Below, piece after piece: positions 4,553 through 62,968 of a DNA stretch of 64,000 bases; position 1 is the stretch's first letter, and every line of letters begins with the position of its first letter. Source of the DNA: Vermamoeba vermiformis. Taxonomy: Eukaryota. The stretch spans positions 1 through 64,000 of the forward strand of contig JBEWZL010000302.1 in assembly GCA_045837725.1 (NCBI GenBank). The letters are read 5' to 3'. The notes below the pieces were generated by a model. The model was given only the letters and a program-made list of their open reading frames with translations, was not told the DNA's origin and ran no database searches. The translations under genes were made by a program, and so were the position numbers.

Positions 4553-5064
4553 TTACCATTCGTGCAATTTGTCTCCTCGGATTCTTCTGGCCAATTGCAT
4601 ATCCTTTGGCATTATAGTTACTCTCTTGGCATGGATGGCTGCCAAATTGGAGAGCTCCAGCAGAGTGACGAGAAATTCCTCGGCCGATTCCTGCAAGGCG
4701 AGCATTGCATTTTTCTGGAAACGAAGATCCGTCTTAAAATCTTGGGTAATCTCTCTGACCAATCTGCAGAAAGGAGCAAAGGGCAACAGCAGGTTATAGG
4801 ACTTTTGGTACTTTCGGATCTCGCGAAGAGCAACTAAAGGTAATTATTAAAAAAATTAATTCAAAATATTAGCAAATAAATGATTATAATTAAGTATTAG
4901 TTATGCTAAATTATTTTCTTCAATATCTTACCAGTCCCGGGTCTAAATCTGTGCAGTTTTTTAGCGGATCCCTGCGGAATTTTACTGCGCTTCTTCGGCG
5001 CATTGTTCTTACGTGGAGCCTTGCCTCCCGTGCTTTTTCTTGCGTGTTGTTTCGTTCGTGCCAT
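4553..5064 (-). CDS. H3: Divergent histone H3 variant, one intron (4834-4931)
   Basis: [84 protein letters not shown]...[28 protein letters not shown]. Unmistakable H3 tail and histone fold; AATAAA downstream. Confidence 0.95.
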
Positions 5065-6099: not shown

Positions 6100-7584
6100 C
6101 CATTCCAGCTCCTCGGTGGAGGAGAAGTCAAACGATGAGTCTTCTGTTGACTCTATGGATATTTATTAAGTATGAAATATAAAGCATCTTTTCTTAATTT
6201 AGCTTACCGATTATCATCTTGGAAATGCAACGAACAGCTTGCTTTTGCGAATTGCCACCTGAATAACGCTTTTCAACTTCCGCCACCGATCTTTGCTCAT
6301 TGTGGGCAATCAATTTAAGATATGCTCTTGATATAATTAGTAATGGATATTGGTGAATAGAGAGTTACTTACCAGTTGTTATTCCACCAAATCCAACGAT
6401 CCCGTATCTCGAATCGAAAACTTTTTTGCTTTTACGGCCTTAATTGATGTTTGCTATTAATAAAAGTAATTAAAATATTATAGGGATATATTTTAATACG
6501 TCTGCAACTTCAACAATTGCAGATTTGACCCGGATCAAAAAATTGATCAGGACCAAAAATTGATAGAAAATCGATATTATTATTTTTTTAACGTGTAATA
6601 TGTTATTTTTATGCTATTCTAATATAATTTATATGAAATTAATCATTAAAAGACTTACCAGTCGCAAAATCCAAAAAAAAAATTAAATCTGGCTTGCATT
6701 GGAAAAAAAGTTTTTCTAGTCTGCTGCTAGGTTATTTAATCTCGTGGTAAATTACACCCCACGAGATTTTGACCCTTTGTGCCCCTCTGTTGCGGCTGCA
6801 TTGGATCCCGGGATAGAAATACTAACGGCCACAGGTGAAAATCCTCCCAAAAACCGCGAGGGAGGATTTTACTGGAACGCACTTTTCTCGGTTCGGCGGT
6901 TTCCAGTATTAAAAGTAATTACATAGCAATGATCAGCGACGTTTACTCTATAACGTCAATTGTTTTGAGGCCAATTGGTAAGTGTTTTTAATAAATTTTT
7001 ATTCGGTTGCACAAATTCGTTTCTAAATCTGGCAACGCTGGATCAAAGATTAAAAACCTTCAAATTTAACGCTTCTTTTCACTTCATTATATTATATTGA
7101 CAGTAATTAATACTATTATGCTTCTCCCATCGCTATTCATTGCCTACTAACATGTGGGCAATGAAGCAGATCCTGAATCCGAAAATTTTTGGCTTAATAA
7201 TGACTCAGTACAGTTACTAATACGGTGAATATCTACTAAACAGACTGCTTTTTGCATCGGCAACGTGATTATTCGTTTTTGCTCGGGTGTACGTACTTTG
7301 AACTTTCTCATCCCGAATCTGCAACCAAACTCGCTATCAAAAAATTGATAACACTTCAATATTTATTCCCATTGCATTTCTGATCATTATTTTGCATTCA
7401 GGCAAGTCTAAAACTATTTTGCCCTGAATCCCAAGTCGTAACCACAGGTTTAAAACTCTAAAGTATCAAACAGATAGCTTTCGCTGAAAGCAATGTGATT
7501 AATCGATTATTTAACTTTGCTCAATAGGTCTACACGAGTTTCCAAAGCTTTCATTTTTTGTTTTTCCCAAAACGTAGCAACACA

Positions 7585-8220
7585 ATGGACCACCGCCTGA
7601 AGCTCTTCTCCAATATGTAAGTGCTTGAATTATCTAATTGTACATTATTTAATGCATAGTACAGCCCGCCCAGAGACCCTGGTGCACCTTGCATACTGCT
7701 TGGACCCCGCCGTGCATCCACGACTGACGATACTCCCTCAGCACCCAGCAAGCGCCGCAAGTACGAGCAGGTAATAGGAGCTCCTCTTTAAACACTTCTT
7801 AACATCTTTTCGTAGCCTTTGTTGCCGATCATTCCAAGCCAGGTAATCCTCCCCAGGATTGCCTTGTTATGGAGTCAGTCATTTGATTCTTCACCTGGTG
7901 GGTGCCAATGGAGCCTTGGATCACTACGACTTGTCAGCCGCAATTGTAAACATATCTGCGACGAATACTTGTTGGATCGAGCTGCTTCGCTGGGATCCGT
8001 TGCTGGAATGGTCAAGCTCTCTGGCCTGCGCTTTCAGCCCACCAACAATACCTGTCGCTTGGCTGCTGCTCAAGGGCACTTGGAATGCTTGGTCTTTGCC
8101 TACTGCAACCTTTACGTTCCCTTGGAAGATGCATTGAGCATTGCTCAGTCATCAGGCTTTGTCCACATCCTTGCTTATGCCAAGAAAGCTGCATGGCCAG
8201 TACCCAAGAAACTACAATAG
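7585..8220 (+). CDS. Small F-box-like / degenerate ankyrin-repeat protein
   Basis: Three exons: MDHRLKLFSNI|PPRD...PSKRRKYEQ|PLLPIIP...LRLVSRNCKHIC...TCRLAAAQGHLECLVFAY. AAxxGHLECL is the ankyrin type also seen at 16945-18187. Confidence 0.65.
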
Positions 8221-8346
8221 TCATTATTTCTGTTAATGCTTAGTAGCACACACACACACACAGACGTAATGCAGCCAAAATGCAATAAACAGGTTTCTTT
8301 CACCAAGTGCAGCCTGTTTGATACACTTTCAGTCCATCCAAGCAGC

Positions 8347-8690
8347 GGGGCATCCTCCACGGATGATACCTTGTGTATTCACTGGTCCTTGTGGGGGAGG
8401 GCGTCCGCCATGGAGGACGCCCTATGTATGTGTTTGTCTAAGCAGGGGAGGGCGTCCTCCATGGAGGACGCCCTATCTACTTATCCGTGCCGGTCTGAGT
8501 GGGGGAGGGCGTCCTCCATGGAGGACGCCCTATGTACGTGCCAGTCTGAGTCGGGGAGGGCGTCCTCCATGGAGGACGCCCTATGTGCATGCTTGTCTCA
8601 GCGGGGGAGGGCGTCCTCCATGGAGGACGCCCTATCTACTTACCCGTGCCGGTCTGAGTCAGGGAGGGCGTCCTCCATGGAGGACGCCCT
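8347..8690. repeat. Array of 26-bp palindromes AGGGCGTCCTCCATGGAGGACGCCCT
   Basis: Copies start at 8347 (degenerate), 8398 (1 mismatch), 8449, 8506, 8557, 8608 and 8665. Periods 51,51,57,51,51,57. Spacers are mutually related and form a duplicated 159-bp higher-order unit. Confidence 0.95.
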
Positions 8691-10047
8691 ATGTACGTGC
8701 CCAACTGACCTCAAAACTCCCAGCCCTAGCCCTATTACCAGTATAATCACGACTGGCTTGATTTCTGTTAATAGGGTCAATCACTGTTGATTCTATACAC
8801 TAGTTGCTCACCTTGGTCCTTGTTCTTGAATGGGTTGAACTGGATCTGCTCGTGGCTGAGCTTGATTGACTTGAGGGGCCTGATTAACCACCATTTGTTG
8901 AGCGATTGGTTGAATTGGAGCTACTGGTTGAACTGGAGCTACTGGAGCAGGGAGAGGCTGAGAAGTAACATTGGTGTTTGACAGGTTGACACTTGACATG
9001 TTGACAGTTGATGTCTGGGCTTGAACAATGCCACTGCTATTAATAGTGTGTGCAGTACCAACAACTTTGGAAGATGAGCAATTGCCACAGGTATTGCAGG
9101 AGCTTTGTGAAGTAGATGTTCCAGTGCCACTGATGACATGTGTCAAGTTGACACTTGACACTTGCGGATCAATAATGCCACTACAAGAACTTTGCTCAGG
9201 CACACAACTAATTATAACATTGTTGATTATTACTTAGTCTAGTTATACTGACAAAGGATCAACTTGATGATACTTACGGTGGAGTTCGTAAATCAGCAGC
9301 AATTTGACCTGCTATCTTTCTGACAGTGTGCTCTTCACGTACTTGACCCTTTGAAGCACTAGAACTGGGCCAGGATGCAAACATCTTGGACAGCTCAACC
9401 TATAAAAAATTAGCAAAAAGTTGGCTTCGTAATGGTCAATACTAACCTCTTCTTTTGCAGCAACAGCAGGGATGCAAATGGAAAGGTGGTTGAGCATTTG
9501 TCTCTTAAAGTCAGAGTCTCGAGTGAAACATGCACTTTTGCACAAAGGGCACTGGATCAGATTGAGTCGAAGCAACTCATTGAGTCGTTGTCTCTTGCTT
9601 GGTGAAAGAAAGTCATCATCCTAGGTTAGCATAGTTAGTATGTGCAGCTAAATGAGAGTACTGATGTGTTTGCGCTTTGATCCAGCTGACCGAAGGTCCA
9701 CCTACATAATGATTGGTTCAGAACACCACTAAAATAGTGATTATATCTTCTCAAATTTTGTTGCAACACCCTTCATATATATGACATAACTCCTGGTTAT
9801 TCAAATAATTTTGATGGGATTTACTTGTGTTAATTCAAGAATGTTCCCATGGCGACCTGCAAAGCTGCAAATAAATTCAACCTAACTCCTAAGAGCAACT
9901 AAATACAGCTGCTGTCATTCCTTTGCGCAAAGAACTAGGATGTTGGTATAAATTTACCCCTGCTTCACTGATCCACTGATATTTGCACTCAGTAAACCAT
10001 GGTGAACAAGAACCAGCTCTTACCTCGTTTGCAAATGAGGTATTCAT
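8689..10047 (-). CDS. Orphan protein with C2HC-type zinc finger and S/T/Q/P-rich C-terminus
   Basis: Exons PSKRQRLNELLRLNLIQCPLCK...MLNHLSIC, ORF 8808-9203, and last exon 8764-8689 ending in TAG at the edge of the palindrome array. 5' exons not fully resolved. Confidence 0.55.
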
Positions 10048-10176
10048 GTTGGATAGACAAAGTTGAAAGCAGTCAGGATTCAGACGCAAACAAAATGGTT
10101 TTGACAAAATTTATTTTCCGCAAAAATTTTACCCAAAAACTTGGCCAAAATTTTGACCGACAAATTTTTGGCTCTT

Positions 10177-11258
10177 TTACACAAGACCAGTATTAAGTGC
10201 TGATTTTATACCACTGTAGTCGCCAAACGGCATTACTAAGCACATTCCACGGCCGTAGTCTTGGCCATCGATGTGTGGCTTTGATATTCCCTCCATATTT
10301 ACAGCCATAGTTTTGAACGTCTCAGTGATGGCACGAATATCACCGTTAACTAATTTGAATCGCTTTTCTAGATTTTCAAAGTGTCGTTCAAACAGCGTGT
10401 CCACGAGTTTAAACAGGCCGATTCTCTTAAGTTCGTCAGCAAAGTCAGCCATTCCTTTCACAGACCGAAGAGATGCAGTAGATACAATGCCTTCTCTTCC
10501 ACCCAGCGGAGTCCAAGCGCCGACATGATAAGACCACGTGTTGATTCCCCCGCGCTCGTGTTTCACAGGTTCCTTTGGATTTCCGTAACGGTCCGTGCAA
10601 AGCCCTTTACGGAATTTAGCCATTGCTTGTTGCACAGCATCGATAACATTATCAGGAATTGCGCCCTTAATAACTTTAAGCAAAGTTCGGTCTTGTCGCG
10701 GGATCCCGGGCTCCTTCCATAAAACTTGCTTGTCGCCGTCGATTACAGTAAATTTTGCAATGTCAAATCGATCTCCATACACTATTGCTTCTTCTTGAGT
10801 TCCCTTCCATACAGGAACTCGGTGGATCGTTAATCGGGAAAAATAACGATCTGCTCTAAAATAAATTTTGCATTAATTATTATAATTAATATATAATATT
10901 CTTACTCTGAATCTCCATCCTCCTCGCAGTCACTCACATAATTGACCGAAAATTGGTCAACATCGCTAACACTAAATTTTTTACTTAATATTGCATTATT
11001 AATAGCCAGTATATTTTTATTAATCATTATTATATTATTATAAATTAATTATTAACTTGCCTCGTCACTACTTGAAGCTCATCTGGAAGATCCAACAGCG
11101 GTGCAGATTCATTTACCAGACGATACAGTAAGCAACGTGCACTCTTAATGATAAATAAAATAAGCACTAAAATTGCAATATACATCATTTGTGGTCGACG
11201 GCCCGATCTCGTAGATAAAATGAACGGCAATTTTTTGGACTTTAACATATAATATCAT
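10177..11258 (-). CDS. TET/JBP-family 2OG-Fe(II) dioxygenase-like protein, apparently lacking its C-terminal part
   Basis: RGGINTWSYHVGAW...FKTMAVNMEGISKPHIDGQDYGRGMCLVMPFGDYSG matches the TET/JBP-type N-x5-6-HxD-x2-D...G-x-Y/F-x-G pattern. Upstream exons splice in frame, one via an AG|GCAAGT GC-AG intron at 10972-11060. No exon with the distal His and 2OG-binding Arg found. Confidence 0.7.
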
Positions 11259-12291
11259 GGAGTTAGCTTTGAATTTTTCTGCCACCAAGGCTATTTTTTG
11301 TATGTGATACAGATGCAGCTAAATTTTAATTTTTTGTGATTTTTTACACTTGCAAGCCACCACTGCCTGTTTTTCACAACCTTTGTACCCAATTTGGAAT
11401 AACTCATTTTTTTATTTATTGTTCTTGGCAAAGGGTGACTCAGGACAATTTGGACTGCCTTGAAGCCATCATGTCACAGTCTCCAGCGTAGGCATAACAG
11501 ACCAAAGAGACAAAGCAACCTGCCACCATTAACCATGTAAAGAAAAACTAACAATCAAGTAGTCAGAGTCAACATTGGTTCCAGGAAAGAGGTAAAAACC
11601 TAAAATAGTAAGGCAATTATAATAAATCAATTGAAATTTTGTTATGAATAAGTTTCATTGGCAATTGCTTCTTCCATGTAGACACAGAGTGTGTTTTCAT
11701 TTAATCTGCTTGTTTATAATTTGTTTTCACTCTCTATCAAACTCTTGATTGCTTCGCTGCAGACAAAGTCAGATCTTACAAAGCAACAAGGGGTACACAG
11801 ATTTTACAGAGAAGTAATCTCTTATTGTGCAACCCTCATGCATTTCTGGCTCCTGGACTTCACAGAAGAACCAAAAAAACCCAGGGCTTAACAAAACTGT
11901 TTTTTTGGACAAACTAGATTTAATTTTCAACTAGTATTTCACAACCCAGCACAACCAATAGAGCTTGATGTAAGGGTTGATTTGGAATGCTTATTAGTGC
12001 TGTTATAACATAAGAAACAATGCCATGCAAGCCCTCAATCAGCTTTAGTAATATTTGGGCACCAGGGCAGCAGACCAGCACCATCTATAGACATCATAAA
12101 AGTTTATTTCAATATTTCTAGTGTCAATTCAACTTCATAATACTTAGAAAGCAAAATTTTTTGATAAATCCTTATTTGAAAGCATTGTAAAGATATGAAT
12201 GGTAGGTGAGAGCAATGTAGAAGAAATACAATCCACCTGCAATAAACAAATGTACGGAAGAATAAACATTTATTTCTACAAGAGAATTGCT

Positions 12292-14106
12292 TCAATTGTC
12301 TTCAAATTCAAATTCCAGCTGGTGTAAAGCAGAAAAGGCAGCTTGATACACTTCTTCTGATATATGAGTTTGAAGCTGTTCCAAATAATCAATACAATGT
12401 GTCACTTCAAGATCATTCTGCACTACATCAAAGTAGCCATGATCTCTGCTGGATGTAAACAGTTTATCAATGGCTTTCAAAGCATCCAAGAGCACAGGAA
12501 TTGTAACACTGGTACTTTGCTTAAATAAGAATGAAAAATATGATAATGCTCCCAATTCTACCAGCTTTTTGCATTGCTGTGCATCTCCATCAGAGATCAT
12601 ATTGACAACAATGCACAGCAATCCAATTTCAACATTAGTTATGCTGGCATTAGGGATTAGAATAATTGGCATCAACTCACTGTCAAGCAATAGTTGAATG
12701 CAAATTGGATTCGTGGCCAAGTTAGCTAACAAATGGTGTGTTCTGGCACGAAGATGTCTATTTGGGCTTTGTAAGAACACTTTGCATGTACCAAATAGAT
12801 TTGGATTCGTCATTATTTCGGTGTCTGTTGTAGAGTTGCCACAGAGACTAATGGTGTCCAACAATTTAAGACTCGCCATTTTAACATTGGTATCGTCGAA
12901 CGATCTGTGGTGGATGTATTAACTGGTGAAATAGTTCGATTCAAAAACTTACAAAAGGTCGACAAGTCTGCTACAGACTGGCTTGATTTGTTCAAGCACT
13001 CTCTCTTGCACGATACTTGACAGCGCATCGCACGCTGCTGCAATCTGTTCGTGATCCGAGCTCGTTGCAATGATTTTGAGTATTGGTGATATTGCTGGCT
13101 CAAAAACATTCAACGCACAATTTTTAAAATCGATTAACGACAAGACTCGCAAGCAAATGACAGACATCTTCAGAATTACACCGTCAAGAGCCAATGTGTT
13201 GATTATAGTGCGTATGAGCTCTTCGTTGTTGACTACTTTAGCCGAAATCCCCTTGAGAAGCAATTAGAATTGAGCGCAGTGCACCATAGTCAACGTACCT
13301 TCTTTTGTCCCGACAATTGATTCGATAAACCCCACAGAGCACTGTACTTGACATCACGCGACTTTGTAGTCATTATTAGCTTGATCAGCTTTTCGGCGAA
13401 TTTAACGTCAGGATCAAAAGCGAGCACTTCAATACTGGCTATCTACATTGGTATTAGGCTAAGATTCAGTCATTAAATGTCTTACTTGTAGGGTTGGACA
13501 ATCGTGCACGTCTACAAACTCAAGTATTCGAGGCAGAATTGTGACTGTAGCAATTGACTTCGCGATCGGATCTGGCGTCACACCGTGTGCATCTAATAAA
13601 TGTTAGCACAACTCAACTAAAGTCACCAATAGTACCTGTTTCTAAAATACGGCTCAAATGGCATACAGCCCCGATATTTTTGTTTCTATCGTTTGAGGCT
13701 ACGTCTACCGCAATGTTCGAAGCATCCAGCGCAAATTGATTTCTTCGAAGTAGTGCTATGAGCTCACTCTTTGTAATTTGCTCCGAGGCATAATATAAAG
13801 AAAAACCGGCAGCTTGCCAAGCCGTTTTGGAGTGAAACTGCCGCCAAAATCTGCGTTCAAATTAAAAATAATTTAAATAAATCACGCAAAATTCCTAAAT
13901 TATTAAAACACCAAAACTTACGCTTTAGATGCTGCAGCAAGGGTTAATATCAATTTAGCGTTTGAAAAAACGAGCTTAATGAATAATCCAAGCAGATCGT
14001 CCACTTCAAACCATTGCACCGTGTCGCTCGAGGTTTCCGCAACCTTTATCCGCTTATTTGGTTCATCATGTTCACCTTCGCTGATATGTGAATGAGATCG
14101 CTTCAT
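12292..14106 (-). CDS. F-box-like N-terminus fused to importin-alpha-like ARM repeats
   Basis: C-terminal IDYLEQLQTHISEEVYQAAFSAL resembles the importin-alpha terminal ARM; ARM-like LLANLA and ACDALSSIV. N-terminal DDLLGLFIKLVF...LTLAAASKA/RFW is F-box-like. Confidence 0.65.
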
Positions 14107-16944: not shown

Positions 16945-18187
16945 ATGTCTGACGAGGAATTGCTGGACTTATTTGATGCAGAACCGGTTTACAATTATAA
17001 AACGGTGCCTAATCCAAAAGATGATTTTGCGGGCTTTAAAACGATTCAAATCACAGTATGTCTTGGTTTTAATTTATTTAATTATCAAAAATATTCTCAT
17101 GATTATTCTTAGGCCGATTTAAATATCGTGTTACCGTCGGAGCTGTGGATGTCGATCTTCGCTTTGCTTTCGGTGGAACCGCACCAAGTGTGGTGGAGAA
17201 TATTATCAGAAGTATCGAAGCACATTAATCACTCGCTCAAGCTGTATTTCAAACGGATCCAATTCTCTCGATTTAATTCAGCAGCAACAATCGCTGGCTA
17301 TTTAGCTGGCGAAGGCTACCTTCAATGCCTCCAATATGCACATGAAAATGGCGCCCGATGGGACGTGATTACATGCATCAGCGCTGCGCAGGGTGGTCAT
17401 TTATCTTGCTTGAAATACGCGCACGAAAATTCTTGCGAGTGGAACGAGGTGACATGCTACTACAGTGCTGCCAATGGTCACATCGAGTGCTTGAAGTACG
17501 CGCACGAACAAGGGTGTGAGTGGACCTTTACGACTATATTTTCTGCGGCCAAGAAGAACAATCTCGAGTGCTTGAAATATTGCTACGAAAACGGCTGTCC
17601 GCGCAAGCCCGAGAGCTCATACCATTATTATGACCAGAATGTCATGTCTATTGCAGCTGGCAATGGAAGTCTTGAATGCCTCCAATACTTGCACGAGCAG
17701 GGCGAATATTGGGACGAGGCTTTGCTTGCTGTAATGACAAGGTTTGGTCATTTAGACTGCGTAAAGTACGCTATCCAACAAGGTAAGATTCTTTCGATCA
17801 ACATCTTCCTCGGGTCTAATTGATGCACGTCTAGGCTGCCCCTATAACAAAGAAACAATATGCTCTCATGCTGCAGATGATTTGGAGTGCTTGATCTACT
17901 TCCACGAGCAAGGACATCCGTGGGATATTGCAAGTTCTGAGGCAGCGCGACAAGGGAACATTGATTGCCTAAAGTACATTCACGAACACGGAGGTGCGTG
18001 GATTGGTGATGAAATAACTTTGGCGTATCGATTCAGTTCGCTGACGTGTCTCATGTACGCATTCGAAAACGGGTGCCCTGTGCCAGCAGATCTGTGCAGC
18101 AATCGAGGCTACTATACACCCCAAGAAATCATTGACTATGCGCATTCTAAAGTCGAATGTACTTGTCCTCCTTACATTTTAGAATAA
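16945..18187 (+). CDS. F-box plus ankyrin-repeat protein (AAxxGHLxCLKYAHENGCxW type)
   Basis: LPSELWMSIF F-box-like start and about 8 ankyrin repeats; two GT-AG introns. Confidence 0.9.
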
Positions 18188-19856: not shown

Positions 19857-22800
19857 ATGGCCTCTAGAGGAAAAAGAAAGGCTGTCAGCGAATCTGGTAA
19901 GTGCCTCAAAATTTATTTGGCAGCGTCCCATGTGGAAATTAACTATTATATTATTTTTAACGTACCTGAGTCGAGCTCTGTTACGATGTGTTAATTTTTG
20001 ATCTAGTGTCAAAACGCCCGCAAAAAAAACAAAAAATCGAGGAAAATGCGTTGTTTGACCTAGTAGACCCAAACGAAGGAGTAAGCTTTAAATAATACAT
20101 ACGCAAATTTTCTCCTTAAAAAAAATTCCTAAAATTGATTGCGTTTAGAGGCAACCTCCGAAAGAGGGCTGGATCAAGCTCTATGAGAAAAAATTCTTTG
20201 GTAAGCATTACGTACATCAAATTATGAGCTCACATTAAAAACAGTTTCGGATTTTCCTAACTATCGTTGCGGGCGAAACACAGCCCTTGATCCGAAACAA
20301 GTGACACTGTTCTTGTGGGAAAAGCTCTCAGTTTATTCAGGCGACAAGATGGTACGTTGGAAACTAACATCATGGCGCGAATATTTGCAGCTCTATTATT
20401 TCTTCGAAACATAATAGATTTTTGGCGCTAACTCCCTTGCAGGTATTTGTCCTGTCAAATGGGCAGGTCTATTATTCCTCGGACAATAGAAGCGATTGGA
20501 TGGCAACTGAGGTAATTTAAGCCAATCATAATTGCCTTCTAATCTAACCACGAGCAGTTTCCATACTCGGCCGACTTTGATCTGTTCAAGGCTGTGTTCA
20601 GTGGCACAAGTGGTCAGATTACATGCACCTACTACTACAACGTTAAGACGTATGTATAATTGATGATGATATTCTCAACGTAACGCAATCTGCATTAGGT
20701 TTGAAGATCTGATCCACAACAATAAAGTTGTACCGCACAAGTTCTTCATTTTCAAGCTCGTCAGCCACGAGATTAGAAACAAGTTCGAAATCATAACAAA
20801 GTAAGTCCTTGATAATGATGTTAAAGCGCTTAACGGTCACAGTTTGGACCCCAAGATTGAGCCCGTCGCGACCCAGCCCGTAGTGGCAACTAAGCAACGC
20901 AAGCCACGAAGACATGTCTGGTTCGACAACCAAAACACAGCGCAATTAACTAGCGCCGAGGTTCAAGCACAAGAGGCTGAGAACAAGCGTTTAGAACAAG
21001 AACGCGAGCAACGTCTCGCCGTTAAAAGTCTCTTTGGCCGCGAGCTGAACGAAGCTCACATCCCTCTTGTAAGTTATTATAACAATAATTAATTATCGAC
21101 ATGCTGATAAAATTACAGAGATGCAATAACCCTCAAAAACAACCGGATGGACTCAAGTTACAGTTGTATAAGTACCAGTTGGATGCGCTGACGTGGATGA
21201 AGATTGTTGAAGAAGATTCAGTTGCTTTGGGACTCAAGCACAGCACATTAGTACCGTGGAGGACTGGCGAGACGAAGATATTGTTTAATCTGATGGAGCA
21301 GGAATTCGTTGAGCCAAGCACAGAAAAATTACAAAAATATACAAAGAATTTGAAGCCCAAAGGTGGTATATTGGCAGATGAGATGGGCCTCGGCAAGACG
21401 TTGTCAGTATTGGGTCTTCTTTTGGCGCACAAGCACGATCCAAACAAAGTCGATTTGACTGCTGAAGAGGACACGAAATATTTCAGAACCAAGGGCACGT
21501 TAGGTAATGAACTATTTAAGACTTGGTGTACGCATCGCTAATAATTCAAATCAGTTATTTGCCCCAATCACCTCGCCAAGCAGTGGGCCGACGAGATTAA
21601 AAAACACACCGAACCAGCTCTTACGACGATCATTATCACCACGAAGGCTGAATATAAATCGTACTCGTACGGTGATATTCTCAATGCAGGTGCGCACATT
21701 CGGACGTACAATTAGGCCCTGTACTAACCTTGGATCCGTAACAGACGTGGTTATCGTTTCATTCCAGTTCTTTAAGAATCCAAACTACTTTTGGTTCACG
21801 AAGCAGACGAAGAGCAAGACAGTGACCGAGAAGTCTTTGAGTCACCGTGAAACTTGTCACAAGTCGGCCTTGACTGTAAGTTTCGAGCAAACTACATAAT
21901 GCTATCGTACTAATGCATTAACGATAGAGAGTCAGAAAATCGGCTTCAGGAGGCTTACAGATCTACGGTGCTGCGCTAGAGCACTTTCATTGGAACAGAA
22001 TCATCGTCGACGAAGCACACGAGATTCTAGACGATAAGTTCTACATGGGTACGTCCGATAGTACTATGTCCCTTAATTATAGCTGTTAAATATTCCATCA
22101 GGTATGTTGGCATTGTTGAGATCCAGTTATCGCTGGTACGTCACCGGCACTCCATTCCCTAATGCGTAAGTACTAGCATTGCCCTTTTTATCACCGCTAT
22201 TAACGCTTCAAAGCGCGGCTCTGTTGGGTGCATCAAAACTGATCGGACTCAACGAGGAATTTGGTGACATCGACGGCATTGCGAGCTTGGAGATCGTACC
22301 AAATGTCGCTGAGAAGCCAGTCTTCGATAAAGAACTCAACTTGTATTCGCCGCTCAAAGTGTCAGACACGATGTCCAACGCTGACATTTTGTACTGCCGC
22401 GTCGCCCATCGTGCGTACAGACGATGGTCATTGTTCGATTTGATGATCAACAACTTGTTCTGGCGGCACACCAAGGTAACAAAAACATCACTTTTAATTT
22501 CATTTTCTGGGCCAACAACTGACACTATTGTTCAGGTCAGCACAAAGGGCGAGTTAACTATCCCAGCCGTAGTGGAAGAACTCATCTTGCGTGACTTTTC
22601 GGACGTCGAGCGTGCGATGTACGTGAACGCACTCAAAGAAGGAAGTGAAAGTAAGTCATAACCTTGCCATTACCCTCTTTCAAGTGTTCTAACTATTGCC
22701 CGTAGTGCGACTTCGTCAATTGTGTTGTCACCCGCAAGTGAGCAGCGAAGACCGAAAGATTTTAGGTGAAGAGACCCAGAGCCTTGATGAAGTGCGCGAC

Positions 22801-24761
22801 AAAATGATCAAACACAAACAAGTACGTTAGTCGACAACACTGAATGTACAAATCATGTTGATTCTTTTTTAGGATATTAAAAACAGCCTTGCGGAGAAGA
22901 TTGCCGGTTACGAGAAAGAAATTGAGGACGAAGAAACTCGTTTAAAGATCAACTCGCTGTTAGGCACTGATTTTAAGAAAGCGGCCGAACTAGCAACAAA
23001 AGTGGCAAAGGCCTATGTTAAGAAGAGAGAGCTCGAATACCTGGCTCGTAAAATTGAGTTCACCGCTGACGAGATGAAAAAGCTGTTCGACTCGGAGTTC
23101 AGAAAGTTGACCAAAGAGCTGACCGACAATCAAGTTCGTAATATTCAAGCGGGCATTCAACACTTGAAGGGCAAAATCAAACAAACTGAGAACGAGGTGA
23201 AAGCCAACGACAGCATGTTGTCGTACTTCAAATCAACGGTAAGAACCCCTTTGCTCTCCAACGCACGCTCAAATGTTAACCCTTCGTTACGATAGATCCC
23301 TAAGAGTGAAGACGTAAAGAACGAAAAGCCGAACTGCGTCATCTGTTACGAGGACATTAAGGAAATTATAATCACTACATGCGGTCACATCTTTTGCGGT
23401 AAGTTGTCTTCATTGAGGACGCTATTCCCCCATTTCTTATTCTACCTTGTTGTAGATACTTGCATTAGATCAGCGATTCAAACTCAAGCGCGATGCCCGA
23501 TGTGCCGAACGGCATTGAGCGAACAGGACTTGCAAAAGGTCATTATTAAGGCCTTGGAAGAGCTCGTCGAGGGTGACGAAAATCCAAATCTACCGCAAAG
23601 CAAAGAATTGCTCGAGTTAGTGCAGAAGTACGGCACGAAGATGGGCAACTTGATCTATTACCTGCGCAATCTTTGGAAGAAAGGACCGAGCAAGGTCATT
23701 ATCTTCTCGCAGTGGGATCAAATGTTGCATCGAATTGGCGATACTTTAGAGGTCAACGGAATTGCAAGCGTTTACGTTCGAGGGTGAGTATGCCAATATC
23801 CACATAAATTAAGCACACGCTCACTCTTATTACAAGCAACGTGATTTCACGAAACAAGGCCATTCAAGCGTTTAAAGCCAAAGAATCTAAGGCAAATGTC
23901 ATCATGTTGTCGCTTGACAATGCCGCTTCAGGAACCAACTTGACCGAGGCATCGCATATCTTCTTGATGGGTAAGTCCTCCTTGATTGAGAAAGACGTAC
24001 TAATGCCACCAATCAGATCCTGTCTCTGGCACCAAAGAAGAAGCTCTCGCCACTGAACGACAGGCCATTGGTCGCGCTCATCGATTGGGCCAGAGCTCGC
24101 AAGTGACAGTCGTGCGCATGATTATCAGTGAGCGCCTTTATCGACAAAGCTTAGTTCGTACTAACTATTTTACAGAGGATACCGTGGAACACGAGTTGTA
24201 TTTGCGAAACTTTGCCGCAGACGACAAAGACACAGCCGTAATTAACAACGGCGAGGCTAACAACACTAACGTAGCTAATGGTAAGTTAAATGGTACCTAA
24301 GAGACGTACTAATGAGTTAAATAGGTGAAGAGAACAACCACAATAATGGTGAAATCCATGATGTTGTACCAATGGAGGTCGAAGAGAAAATTGCGCAAGA
24401 TGAAGCGGAGATCAGTGATGCAATCTCGAACTTTGCCAAGAAGAGACGCGAAGCTAAGAAAGTTGAAGAAGAGAAAGCACGCGAGAAAGTAGACGAGACC
24501 ACTGACAATGCTGATGCGGACGAAGACGGCGTGAAGACCCCCGAGATCAAGGAAGAAGAGCTGTTGTACAAGACGAAGAGTCAATTAGAACGAAGTCCGT
24601 CCAAGCTATTAGGCGTGCGAAGATTGAGCTCTTCGTTTAAGAGCCCATTGATTGTGCGCTCCAATAGTTTGACGACTTTGTTGGCGAACAACAACAACAA
24701 CTTGACCACCTCGTCTGATGAGATCAAAGAGCTATTAAGCAAGAACGAGAACTTGAATTAG
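19857..24761 (+). CDS. SNF2-family helicase with RING finger (Rad5/Rad16/SHPRH-like)
   Basis: GGILADEMGLGKT, RIIVDEAH, RWYVTGTP, LRQLCCHP, RING CVIC...CGH...CPMCR, KVIIFSQW, GTNLTEASHIFL, QAIGRAHR. Confidence 0.92.
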
Positions 24762-51720: not shown

Positions 51721-54575
51721 ATGGAGCAGCACTATTGGTTATTTCTAAATTTACCGCTCGAATTGAGCTTAGAAGTACTCACTGATGCTGGTAATAAGGC
51801 CATTACGAGTATAGCTTCCCTCAACAAAGCGCATCTCGATTTATTTAATAAACCAAACGGACTGTATCAACGTCTAGTTGCTAGAATATGTAACAATAAT
51901 ATGCAAGGTAATTTCAGATAATATTTAGAATCGATATTTCGGCTGTGATATAAATTTACAGGCACATCCAAAGTATCTTCGTTTTTCTCGTTTAATTTTT
52001 GCATGACAGACGGTTAAATTGATTTTTATCATTAATAGGTCTTATTAAAGAGGATTTTGACTGGTATCGCGAGTTTAGAATCGTGTCATATTATTACGAT
52101 CAAATTCTCAACAACTCGGTCGTGGATCCAAGAGACTTGGAGAGCTTGAAAACCGCTTTTGCCATAGATGAATCGGTTAAAGTACATTAATGATTAATAT
52201 AGCATCGATTGGGCCCTATTAACCTGTTTTTCTGCTCAAGTTGTTGGACGAAGAAACTTATTCCGGTAAACTGCTGATCCAACAAAGCCAATTGCCTTTA
52301 TATCCCCTTCCAATAGGCGACTATTCAACAGCATATTATGAAATCGAATTGGACGAATATTTTGGCGAAGAGTAAGTAAAATTCAATTTTTTTCGGTACA
52401 TCCGTTGCGAAGAGTCAGTACATCTCAATTTATTCATATAATTGATTTTAAATATTAAATATTGATATTAACATGATTAATAGGGAGATAATCGCAGAGG
52501 TTTGTGTCGGAGCGAGTTTACATGGAGCGATCTCACTTCCAGGGCATGGCCGCAATTCATTTGCTTACAATAGTTGGGGTTCAATGACAATAGAAAGTAC
52601 TCACAGTTGGCGTGAAGAAAGGTTTAAGAGTTTTGATATTGATTTGGGCGAAATTGGTACGTTTTAAATTATAATTTTTTTTTAGGTCAAAGATCTGATT
52701 TATTTTTTTCAGTTGGATTTGGCATTAATTTCAAAAATAATTCAATTTTCTTCACATTAAATGGAGAATTGATATTTGAAACGAACGAGACGGTATTTGG
52801 CAAACCTTTATTGAATTTAAAGGCGCTTCATGCGCACTTCAGCGTCGAACTGATAAAAAAAGAAAATGATGCGGAGGAAATGCGTAGAGTGACTCCTATA
52901 GTCAATTTTGGAGACGATGAATTTGCATTCGATCTCGTGAAATATCAGCAAAGTCATTCAGCCAATCAAACAAATTCTCCCCAAAAACACCGATTCTATT
53001 CTGACGTCAGTACGTATCAAATTCAATCTGCAAATTTCGAAATTTCACAGTTGTTCCACTTACATTGAGACGCGATATTTGCAGATTAATGATTTGAACT
53101 AATTTTTTCGACTTTGCAGTTGCGGATCACGTTTTGGCGTACCCTGATTACGAAACTATCAAAGTATACGAAGAAGATCCAGAACGTATTAACCAATTAA
53201 TCGTTACACCTGTGGATTTCCCGTCAAATGTCAAAACAGAGGGAAAAGCGGGAGCGCATGGACTTGACAACTTTTTGTACGGATTGCTCTTTCTGAGATC
53301 TGCGTACCATGATCTAGCTGATGGAGAGCGAATGGAAGATGAGTTCGACAAATTAAAACAAAACATTGGTGTCCACTCCATGGTATATGAATGCGATAAG
53401 TAAGTACAAATCGGAACTAACAACAAAAAAGTGACACTTTGACACGTGTCAATGATATTTTTCACGTGTCAAAGATATTTTTACTGTACTTTTTTGCCGT
53501 GGTGTACAATCAACTGATTTTTATTGACAGAGGAAAAGACTATTATTCAAATAGTTTAATCCGTGAGTTTGGATTTGGAGATTTGATCGCTAAAGAAGGT
53601 CACGACGAATTCTTTCAGCCTCGTTATCGGAAGTTCGCGTGGGAAATTTGTGACGATCTGCTAAGTTTGATCAGAGGCCACTGTTGGACTATCGTTTGGG
53701 GCGCTTTTATCGTAAGTCTTTCTTTCAATCTATCGTTATTTCACTATAATTTAAGAAAAAAAAGTAATACCATTATATTAGGGCCAAAATGAATGGTCAG
53801 TCGCGGTTTTGTGCTATCGGGTCTATAGTAAGAGATCTATTTTTTTTTGTTCGGCGTTAGTCAGCTAGCTGACTTTGGTTATATTCAGCATGGCAGTATC
53901 TAATGAGCGAAGAGAACAAAGAGATGGATCCAGAGGTCGCCGAGGCTGCTAAAAAACTATTGTCAAAAATTCTGAGAATTGAAGAACCACAGACAACGCC
54001 AGAATTTATCGAATTTGACGTCGCCTTTTGTCAATATTGCTTGTCGTAAGCGTTAATACTACTATTTATATAATATAGGCTAACAACTTATCCAGAACTC
54101 TTCGCTGGCTAGCGATCAAAACTTTGATCCAGGAAAGATCGGTCGTTACACGACGACAGACGGCAAAAAAATTATCGAATCTTAAGGTAAATATGCTGGT
54201 TATATTCTAAAATTCATAATTACATCCTCACATTACTTTTTCTTTATGAAGAAACTTTTCGGGCCTTCCGATCCCATCATCAAAAGGTGTCTTGCAACGA
54301 TGAGATTATTGGCTCCTCCAAAGACTAGTACAGATGATAATTATGATGCGCCCTTGCAACGCTTAGCAATGCGATTTTTTTCTTCCAAGCGTAAACGAGA
54401 TAATGACGACGAGAAAATGGATGTGAGCAAAATCGATTTTGGCAGTGAAGAAGAGCTGCTCAAAGCACGCATATTCGATTTTATAACAAAAGAGAAGATA
54501 TTTGGCACTTTAGAAAATGCGGAGGACGACTCTGCCTCGGGTTCAGGATCGGATTCGGAGATCGAACTTGAATAA
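51721..54575 (+). CDS. F-box-like + SPRY-domain protein
   Basis: FLNLPLELSLEVL; AYYEIEL, LPGHGRNSFAY, VGFGINF...FFTLNG, VNFGDDEFAFD. Confidence 0.75.
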
Positions 54576-60032: not shown

Positions 60033-62968
60033 TTATGATTTATCTGACTCCTTTGTATAATGCCCGTTAACATTTCGTAACGAGCTCGATTTTTTCAGTT
60101 TGTCCATTCTCTGCTCGCCATTATTATTATTATTATGATTAGTGTTGATATGATGATCTAGATTCCTAGGACTAAGAGAGCCGGCTACATTAGTCACCGT
60201 ACTTCCATGCTGATTATGAGATCCTCGTTCGGATTTGCGTTTTTCTTCTTTCGGCGAAATTTCGCTCTCTGTTAAGTCGTATTCTTTTACGGCATATTCA
60301 AATTGCGTAAATCTCTTGGCGCCACCTTCGCTCGCAACAGAGAAGAATTGATCCAGATGCGCACTCGTGTTGAAAGGTTTGTTCAGTAGCAAAGTGTTCA
60401 AATATTCCATAATATTATTGGCGCTCTTCCTTACTTTATGCGATGTAAAATTATGCACTAAATTCTTTTTTGGCGGCTTTGGAATTTTAACTCCAGAATT
60501 TCCGTACGCTACATGCAGCTACAAAACAATCCGAAATTAATACCAAATCATATAAAAACTAATTATAGATATAATATACATCTATTGATAGTATTTTATT
60601 AAATTTACCTGTTCTGAAAGCTCGACAAAATGTTCGAATCTTTTGCTGACCGCTCGGATCGGCTTAACGCCACGGATCAGCAATATCAAATAAATCTATA
60701 ATAATACTATATTAGTATCGTGGCCGGCAGTATTAGTATTAATTATAGTTTGATCGTTGTATAGACTTACTAGGAAGTTTCCTTCAACTGGATGATTCAC
60801 GAGTACCGCTTTGCGAATTTCAACGCGCAATCTCATTTGCTGTAAGTATAAAGCAGTTAATAAAACGATAGTATAAAATCAATACTGTTTAAGTCAATAA
60901 TGACGGTATACATAGTATTTTAACTAAGTTTACGAAAATTATTTTCAAGATAATGGATCGAGCTATGGATGCACGATTGGTGGTGTTTTTAAAAATGAAA
61001 CATATTTCAATGGTATTGGTAATGATAATGTTATGCATAATAGAATTATTTGAGTTGAAAAGTCTTAAAAATTTGGTGCATGCACCCACTTACGCGTTCA
61101 AAATCGACTTCAGCGTTCTGCTGGCATTCATGAATAAACCGCACAATGCCCTTAAATTGCACCAGTGAGACTTCAATGTCTTTTTTGTCCCAATTCAGAT
61201 CATTTGGCACGCGGTCTTTCCACGCTTCTAAATTCGAGATCATGCGTTGAGGTCTGTGACATGGCAGCAGCAAAAAGTCTCCTAATTGGCGTTGTCCAAG
61301 CACTGAATTATTTTCGGCTTTCTATATGTACACATGTTAATATTATGGTTTAAATAGAAATAAATAATCAACTTCGAAATTGAATTTTGCCAGATCCGCT
61401 TTCAATTATTTGATTTTGCTCAAACTTATGAAAAATGTATATTGTATTGTACGAATGAGTAATATTAGGGATTGACAATAAGCATAAACAACGGTCGCAA
61501 CGAGATCTGATGTTCGTATTCAATTTAAGCTTAATTCGTACCTTAATCCAATTTCTGAGCTCTGGATGCGCAAAAGATTTTTTCAAATCAGCCAAACAGT
61601 CTTTTGACACTGGATATTTCTTCATATATTCGACGTACGTTGAAATATATTTTGAGACCTAAAAGTACGAATTAATTAAAACCGATCAATAAGAGCTGGA
61701 GATTTTTAAATATGAAGATAAGATCAGATGGGTGATATATTTGCATTAATTAAATTTAATATTTGAAATTTTTGTAAATTTCGTAACGGATGCAAAAGTA
61801 TTTTTAGATCTGATCCGAAATTTGGCTGTGGAAAAAGTATATAGAGGAATAAATGGATACTTACGATAGCCGCGAATATAGGCTGTATTTTTAGACCAGG
61901 TATCGTTGAATATAATTCAAGATGCGCGATAAATTCTTCCGTGATCTCAATGACTTGCAAAATATTGCCAAAAATTCGTTCAATTTTTTCTTTAGGCACC
62001 AAAACTTCGTCTGTTTCACTAGCGTGCCTCAGTGGCTCGTAAAAATGCTGCAAAAATCGTTAATCAAAGCGAAAAAAATTCGATCCGGTCAAATTGTTTT
62101 TTCAATTTGATTTCAAATTAATTAACCATTAATACAAATCGATATTATAGGTAAGATTAATTATAATTAAGCTATGTAAACTCAATTTAATGAAAGTGTC
62201 ACTTCAATTTTCTATTTTTGGAGTGACAGTATCTTTTCATTTAAATTCAATTGGATCCACCTTAAGTAATTGATCTTCCGCAAAGATACGCTATAGACTG
62301 ATAATATTACTTACTGTAATAAGCAAATTAAGATCTGCATAATAAATTAACTCCGATTCGAGGATTTCTCGGCGCCACCTGAGTTTTTCTTGAACGGCTG
62401 GATCTTGCACATTCTGTTCGTCAGCAGCTGCATATTCTTCATTTTCGTAATTATTACTGCCAGAACCATTTGCAGCATTATAACTAAGCTCCATTTCGAA
62501 AGGATTTTCTGCATCCACCAAATTTTCGTTATTATGGTTTGTATCCTCGTCATTTGATAGTGAATCGGTACTTTGGCGCTTAATATCTGTATAAATACGT
62601 TATTAATCAAATTGGAAATAGCGTAAATTTAATTTTAAATTCACAACCGAAAATCAATTCAGCGATCTGCTCGAGAAATAATTAAAAAATTGTGAAAGTA
62701 TCGCAAAATAATTAAAATACTATATTTAAGTGCTGATTATACCTCTATCTACAAGTTTGGGCATTAGATCGGGTTGGATCGATCCTCTTAACGACGGCGT
62801 GGTTGAAAGTGAGCTTGGATTATCCTCGTCATAGTCCCACCCCTCAAAATATAGTGATGAACTCATAGACGAAGATGATTCCACTGAGCTCCTTCGCGCT
62901 GCAGCAGCTCTTCGGAGAAGTTCCTCCATCTGGCTAGAATTATAAGAAAGATGATTCTGACTCGTCAT
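60033..62968 (-). CDS. RhoGEF (DH) + PX-domain protein
   Basis: REILESELIYYADL, IFGNILQV, FLLLPCHRPQR (DH); SKRFEHFVEL, IPKPPKK, MEYLNTLL (PX). Confidence 0.75.

Follow-up and report, generated by a model that had tools for sequence, protein, structure and literature searches.

A TET/JBP-family gene fragment of Vermamoeba vermiformis, broken within the last intron, and evidence for an intact version in the species

A 64,000-nucleotide stretch of Vermamoeba vermiformis DNA (contig JBEWZL010000302.1, positions 1 to 64,000; hereafter the window) carries on its minus strand a reading frame that resembles the first part of a TET/JBP dioxygenase and stops short of the catalytic end of such an enzyme. 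This raises the questions of whether the frame belongs to that family, where the rest of the gene lies, and whether the break is an old relic, a recent event or a fault of the assembly. TET/JBP enzymes write and erase oxidised methyl-bases in DNA, and NgTet1 and other small members with a single domain serve as models and in the mapping of 5mC; genes of the family have reportedly been catalogued in diverse protists by Iyer, Aravind and colleagues. Our analysis leads us to conclude that the window holds a genuine TET/JBP-family gene fragment, broken in the last intron, and that an intact counterpart is present in the species. The DNA around it is eukaryotic, with short GT...AG introns and ordinary host genes that include an H3-like histone-fold ORF, ankyrin repeats, and SNF2, RING, SUN, START and Ras-family domains; a sigma-70/terminator scan, inapplicable to a eukaryote, gave a chance-level result and was set aside. 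The features that the argument needs are the following:

10906-11027, minus strand: candidate first coding exon (MINKNILAINN...EEDGDS), with ATG at 11027-11025, predicted donor GA/GTAAGA, ending with two bases of a Glu codon
10856-10905, minus strand: predicted 50-nt intron (GTAAGA...TTTTAG), whose phase fits the main exon at 10855
10212-10855, minus strand: main exon, with the N-terminal helical part and the first strands of the TET/JBP double-stranded beta-helix, up to FGDYS plus G
10258-10281, minus strand: KPHIDGQD, the HxD iron-binding motif (His 10273-10275, Asp 10267-10269)
10188-10211, minus strand: retained first 24 nt of a phase-1 intron (GTATAAAATC...TACTG), read from the sequence, the intron position being shown on DNA in the metagenome loci L001 and L002
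10177-10209, minus strand: read-through tail IKSALNTGLV plus stop, made of intron remnant and flank, without TET sequence
10188-10192, no strand: breakpoint with a 5-nt overlap (CAGTA on the plus strand, TACTG on the minus strand), 24 nt into the intron, placed by the departures of contigs of the DNA run X1
10113-10168, no strand: weak 13-nt periodic A/T-rich stretch (the "CAAAATTTT-rich" DNA of the earlier note), 4.4 copies with 63% matches, upstream of the next gene
10024-10047, minus strand: putative first exon of the next minus-strand gene (MNTSFANE/GTAAGA)
11148-11258, minus strand: ORF MILYVKVQ..., formerly proposed as a first exon, unsupported as an exon or as ubiquitin-like

The minus-strand frame at 10177-10872 is open for 231 codons, with no internal stops (stored as P0001). 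Two readings of the earlier note were borne out here: KPHIDGQD is present as an HxD motif, and the frame runs through PFGDYSG (FGDYSG at 10210-10230) into GTATAA, a probable donor that matches the position of a phase-1 intron of the family. The split falls one base into the Gly codon, the exon ending with the G at 10212 and the intron starting with GT at 10211-10210. A cryptic 38-nt intron (GTATAA...AAAAG) was rejected, as it leads to a frame without TET similarity. There is no Met in the ORF ahead of the conserved region, and homology to its relatives begins near residue 29-34; judging from the DNA alone, the exon opened by the ATG at 11027 is a candidate for the first coding exon of the gene and would join the main one in phase. 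A different first exon, MILYVKVQ...YEIGPSTT, had been suggested for its faint resemblance to a ubiquitin-like start. That suggestion had to be abandoned: the ORF matched no Pfam family at E values up to 10, nothing ties it to the gene, and it lies beyond 11156, where an X1 contig departs from the window. Three RNA runs with the same species label gave zero reads on 7501-13500 and hence have no bearing on expression or splicing.

An exhaustive HMMER search of 1.84 billion representative proteins recovered 22 relatives of the window ORF at E<=1e-3, 8 at E<=1e-10 and 3 at E<=1e-30, and of the 214 candidates from a word-indexed search, one proved to be a relative, P0002 (64% identity). With the main exon, E values were 5.9e-29 for the full-length homologue P0006 and 2.8e-21 for P0008. 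Nineteen of the relatives found by HMMER were aligned (alignment A1), in which N192, H200, D202, D205, G209, C211, P215 and G217 are invariant, the HxD residues His200 and Asp202 thus being shared by all 19 sequences; 18 of them matched the Pfam family Tet_JBP (PF12851) at E<=1, the best at 3.6e-16. The Tet_JBP profile search that the earlier note had proposed as a check was run against a gathering cut-off of 34.9 bits. Seven of the eight C-terminus-bearing homologues cleared it, with 37.3-59.3 bits, the remaining one, P0014, scoring 31.8, and the truncated homologues P0002 and P0003 gave no Pfam match at E<=0.01. The window fragment scored 13.7 bits (E 0.036, profile positions 59-119 of 164), below the cut-off because the C-terminal third of the domain (profile positions ~120-164) is absent from it.

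Searched against solved structures, the A1 profile found NgTet1 (5cg8, 2.1e-9; 4lt5, 3.3e-9) and CcTet (8jkk, 3.8e-8; 7vpn, 3.9e-8), and the next match was PiuC at 0.033. A structure model of the full-length P0006 (pLDDT 83.6, pTM 0.83) placed CcTet at the top of a Foldseek search (E ~5e-13, TMq 0.70-0.74), followed by NgTet1 (TMq 0.68, TMt 0.59) and then CMD1, while generic 2OG oxygenases appeared at 3e-7 and worse with TMq 0.42-0.54, among them AlkB, PHD2 and a viral prolyl hydroxylase (from 3e-7 on, TMq 0.42-0.48). The family profile, the fold matches of P0006 and the C-terminus-bearing homologues over the cut-off therefore identify the clade as TET/JBP, and the window ORF is a member of this small, divergent clade of TET/JBP 2OG/Fe(II) dioxygenases. 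The earlier description of the gene as TET/JBP-like thus stands at the family level. The fragment by itself stays under the Pfam cut-off, its own model is too poor for a fold comparison (pLDDT 56.2), and its exons are predicted from sequence, points that count against our account of the gene. That it comes instead from another type of 2OG/Fe(II) oxygenase (prolyl hydroxylase or AlkB-like, for instance), and not from a nucleic-acid oxygenase, is scarcely credible, for although the isolated fragment reaches just E 0.036 to Tet_JBP and 4 of the 19 family members also touch 2OG-FeII_Oxy_3 (best E 1.2e-4), TET structures lie 5-7 orders of magnitude ahead of PiuC, AlkB, PHD2 and collagen prolyl hydroxylase in the profile and fold searches.

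The closest described counterpart by profile is NgTet1 of Naegleria (PDB 4lt5, 5cg8, 5cg9), which like the clade is a small single-domain TET/JBP protein of a free-living protist with the HxD...H...R arrangement, and which is bound to 5mC and 5hmC DNA according to its PDB titles. It was the best profile match (E 2e-9, profile positions 122-240) and superimposed on the P0006 fold with an rmsd of 3.4, yet structural alignment gave just 16% identity, the complete homologues of the clade are shorter (from 227 aa, P0006), and ~58 residues are missing from the end of the window copy. CcTet of Coprinopsis cinerea (PDB 7vpn, 7w5p, 8jkk) has the same catalytic motifs and comparable scores (Foldseek E 5e-13, profile 4e-8), but shares 13-14% identity with the clade and is 415-430 aa long. 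CMD1 of Chlamydomonas (PDB 7cy4-7cy8) has the TET/JBP fold (Foldseek E 4e-9) and acts on 5mC DNA by its PDB titles; it differs in being much larger (858-872 aa, TMt 0.17-0.18), and, again by the titles, it works with vitamin C. By analogy with NgTet1 and CcTet, the intact enzyme of the clade would oxidise a methylated DNA base, with 5-methylcytosine as the likeliest substrate.

The point at which the window frame fails is one that its relatives share. Complete homologues continue after FG.Y.G through GG(D/E)L, PGD, F.S....H.N and R.S..FF. Five of the seven closest proteins (P0002, P0003, P0004, P0005 and P0007) stop 3-14 unrelated residues past the same Gly, at 7-14 residues in P0002, P0003, P0004 and P0007, and the tails of these five are likewise unrelated to each other. 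The residue that follows the Gly is K, T or I, whose codons start with A, as read-through of a G/GTA donor would give. A metagenome scan with a closer alignment (A2) found two loci, L001 and L002, whose contigs carry the P0005 gene. There the exon ends ...TAT GAA G/GT, the intron, of 46 nt, closes with ATACAG, and the exon behind it runs GA GGA GAC..., translating to GGDLVFYELGIRFRLNPGDIIFFKSKTLLHGNSPVKEALSRHSLTFFTHQRDFHLQDN and a stop; this last exon (GGDLVFYELG..PGD..LLHGN..RHSLTFFTH) is a 63-codon open frame with ~59 coding residues. The database ending of P0005, GTSN and a stop, is the exact read-through of the 46-nt intron, as shown on the DNA. Together, the DNA of these two loci and the relatives that stop past the same Gly establish that the clade has a conserved phase-1 intron right after FG.Y.G, and the tail IKSALNTGLV of the window frame is a read-through of the same kind as that of P0005.

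Behind that intron, the last exon of the clade (~60 codons) encodes the strand with GG(D/E)L, then PGD, H.N with the third iron ligand, and R.S..FF with the 2OG-binding Arg. The earlier note had seen no exon for the distal His and Arg, and within the window this was confirmed. A tblastn search with 23 family proteins gave no credible match beyond the main exon: most alignments end at 10207-10246 and that of P0009 at 10351, and those of P0012 (10195) and P0002 (10180) extend into the read-through tail. Two other sets of tblastn matches were rejected, the best of the remainder (E 0.018) belonging to the non-TET tail of P0016 and the weak ones at 62374-62436 recurring just because the queries are interrelated, with no TET-like ORFs there. 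An HMM of the C-terminus (61 positions, 12 sequences, filters off), applied to all stop-to-stop frames of at least 12 codons on both strands, reached at best 8.7 bits in the 64-kb window (E 0.23, at 53443-53514 on the plus strand, which is the wrong one), and gave 86.5 bits on the homologous exon of L001/L002, the positive control. The CAAAATTTTG motif occurred once in the window against 0.49 expected.

The distal His, the third iron ligand, is found as H.N in 12 of 12 C-terminus-bearing homologues and in L001/L002, but neither the ORF nor any of the six frames of the window encodes it. The 2OG-binding Arg of R.S..FF, carried by 11 of the 12 C-terminus-bearing members of A1 (P0008 has Q-F-S), is absent from the window as well. 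What is missing corresponds to residues 170-227 of the P0006 model, that is, five strands together with His198 and Arg210. Without the third iron ligand and the 2OG-binding Arg, the window copy cannot be an active oxygenase. Its product, of ~255-270 residues and ending IKSALNTGLV, would be devoid of five of the nine strands modelled from the strand before HxD onwards and of two of the four catalytic residues; it would be unable to bind Fe and 2OG productively, making this copy a null allele.

Evidence on the break itself came from X1, a DNA run with the same species label that holds 0.92 of the sampled words of 9000-12000; its contigs were placed on 7501-13500, with 8 of the 158 pieces listed. 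One contig matches the window from 10188 rightwards and has 255 unlike letters to the left, another matches up to 10192 and has 255 unlike letters to the right, and a third departs from the window at 11156; the contig over 10188-10473 has its end at precisely 10188. The alternative branch at 10188, of which 30 letters are seen, reads on the minus strand as an intron end, TTTGTAG, followed by GT GCC GAC C. Added to the 24 retained nucleotides, this branch gives an intron of 45 nt, compared with 46 nt in L001, and it continues in phase as Gly-Ala-Asp, where the family has G-(G/A)-(D/E) and P0012 has G-A-E; among the 127,940 30-mers that the window yields, just 42 have an AG with such an in-phase start. 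Looking in the window for the three alternative 30-letter ends, with up to 3 mismatches allowed, gave no match. The presence of the intron end and exon start in contigs of the same species therefore implies that an intact version of the gene exists in the species.

Depth and variation in X1 bear on how many copies are involved. Coverage over 10188-11075 was 255-277, against 318-362 in the flanks. A minor variant contig within the ORF (10474-10566) accounted for 126 of a depth of 326 and showed 5 differences in 93 nt, two of which change the protein (V to M, R to H), the other three being synonymous, and one in the left flank (9328-9420) accounted for 116 of 333, with 7 differences in 93 nt. 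Such similar minor shares (~35-39% of depth) in the ORF and in the left flank are more readily explained by two haplotypes or strains, rather divergent from each other, than by an additional paralogue. The proposal that the gene is a truncated relic was therefore right only in part: it is truncated, but the lack of internal stops and the proper intron end and exon start carried by X1 contigs are at odds with an old relic. This copy appears to be either a deletion allele of recent origin or a fault of the assembly.

We favour a real polymorphic deletion, in which the alternative branch would be an allele of the locus seen in the window, and give this reading a probability of about 55%. A microhomology-mediated event is proposed, since the two sides of the joint overlap by 5 nt and DNA reads of the species show the gene continuing intact. 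On the minus strand, 10212-11027 would comprise the first and second coding exons of a gene that encodes a small TET/JBP Fe(II)/2-oxoglutarate dioxygenase with a single domain, and a deletion between two TACTG pentamers would have taken away 21 nt from the end of the intron together with the final exon and the 3' end. The stump of the gene, cut 24 nt past the donor, would then abut the region upstream of the minus-strand neighbour, whose putative ATG is at 10047, and the deletion would be polymorphic or heterozygous in the species. Several observations count against this. Among the 8 of 158 pieces listed there is no read or contig spanning the window joint at 10160-10188, and just 30 letters are seen of each alternative branch, so the meeting of the branches and a complete last exon are presumed. 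Moreover, the window and the sole X1 contig there disagree at 10063, 10086 and 10092, so that X1 may not be the source of the window; the departure at 11156 is a second, upstream difference between the two forms that a simple deletion does not explain.

Part of this evidence would also suit an assembly artefact, in which the intact gene would be the only one in the organism and the assembler would have dropped the segment between the TACTG repeats or misjoined contigs. The lack of a spanning piece among those listed agrees with it, and the three mismatches to the sole X1 contig hint at consensus errors or at another source. We regard an artefact as unlikely, however, considering that in a de Bruijn assembly an X1 contig ending exactly at 10188 implies two continuations in the reads, that a depth of 586 in the bin 10101-10300 is more than the two listed pieces explain, and that an overlap of 5 nt as clean as this is characteristic of biological deletions more than of misjoined long reads.

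It is quite unlikely that the intron was broken by a balanced rearrangement (inversion or translocation) or by a long insert, with the last exon surviving in the same haplotype outside the 64-kb window. Such an event would account for alternative partners on both sides of the joint, and as the three alternative ends are not in the window (up to 3 mismatches), these partners must be elsewhere or deleted. Yet the left flank is an ordinary neighbouring gene, neither a transposase in 40 ORFs of the window nor terminal repeats around 10188 were found, the depth of both flanks follows one and the same pattern of two haplotypes, and a gene split in this way would be equally inactive unless trans-spliced. 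For the same question the earlier note had offered inserted DNA that splits the gene and leaves its last exon beyond the window; the exon is indeed absent from the window, but an insertion is less economical than a deletion, and we consider it a doubtful explanation.

The chance is slim that 10188-11156 is a dispersed partial duplicate, a pseudogene copy of an intact paralogue from which the loose-end contigs derive. The departures at 10188 and 11156 do bracket the TET-like segment, and the clade is multi-copy in databases. Against this, the depth of the segment is not raised (255-277, with 318-362 in the flanks), and the alternative continuation of the left flank is unlike the window beyond 11156, which leaves no simple empty site. 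A polymorphic deletion hence remains the reading that we prefer.

Some observations were made on the surrounding DNA. The periodic stretch at 10113-10168, between the break and the putative ATG of the next gene, includes a GGTCAAAATTTTGGCC hairpin. Inside the ORF at 8221-8790, a 51-nt tandem repeat (8394-8701, plus strand, 5.8 copies) has a perfect 26-nt palindrome, AGGGCGTCCTCCATGGAGGACGCCCT, in each unit and translates on the plus strand as repeated ...GRASSMEDAL...; X1 contigs depart at 8746/8747, just past this repeat, so that its copy number or flank may be polymorphic. The histone-fold ORF of the H3 type lies at 4553-4843 on the minus strand (Pfam Histone, 4.9e-33) and is divergent, perhaps representing a variant H3 of centromeres. 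On the plus strand, at 17113-18187 and 7816-8220, are ankyrin-repeat ORFs in which a unit ...CLKYAHENGC... recurs, with an Ank_4 match of 6.7e-19 for 17113-17823; the ORF at 7816-8220 is ankyrin-like by eye and had no Pfam match at E<=0.001. A multi-exon gene at 21089-24300 (plus strand) combines an SNF2-related domain with a C3HC4 RING finger, an architecture like that of Rad5/Rad16.

Fungal TET/JBP genes are carried by or adjoin DNA transposons, among them Kyakuja, Dileera and Zisupton, as described by Kojima (2025, PMC12730594). Unlike those transposon-borne genes (KDZ and others), the window gene has ordinary host genes as neighbours and no transposase beside it: none of the 40 ORF translations of the window matched a transposase family of Pfam (E<=10 in one scan, E<=0.001 in two others), no terminal inverted repeats bracket the gene, and the 3.1-kb contig of the L001 homologue has no long second ORF. 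Longer, fused forms were absent from 894 candidates, a result that is weak evidence, and 67 pattern matches in viral contigs included no relatives. A bolder reading, to which we assign low odds, is that the clade consists of undescribed minimal, intron-bearing TET/JBP dioxygenases of free-living microbial eukaryotes, not linked to transposons, and that the window shows a natural null allele segregating beside an intact one. The complete forms start at 227 aa, and the clade has just 22 detectable relatives in 1.84 billion representatives. On this reading the truncated half-enzyme, if expressed, might be a catalytically dead DNA-binding competitor of intact paralogues.

As a broken allele, the window copy says little on function. 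What the window does appear to show is a fresh structural polymorphism in a TET/JBP gene, which calls for caution against judging the TET complement of the organism from this assembly alone. For the family, the finding concerns a clade that is rare in databases, lies at or below the Pfam threshold and is systematically truncated by gene callers. The catalytic C-terminus is missing from the records of five of the seven closest database proteins, as shown on DNA for P0005, and knowledge of the conserved last intron makes the real proteins reconstructable from their own DNA.
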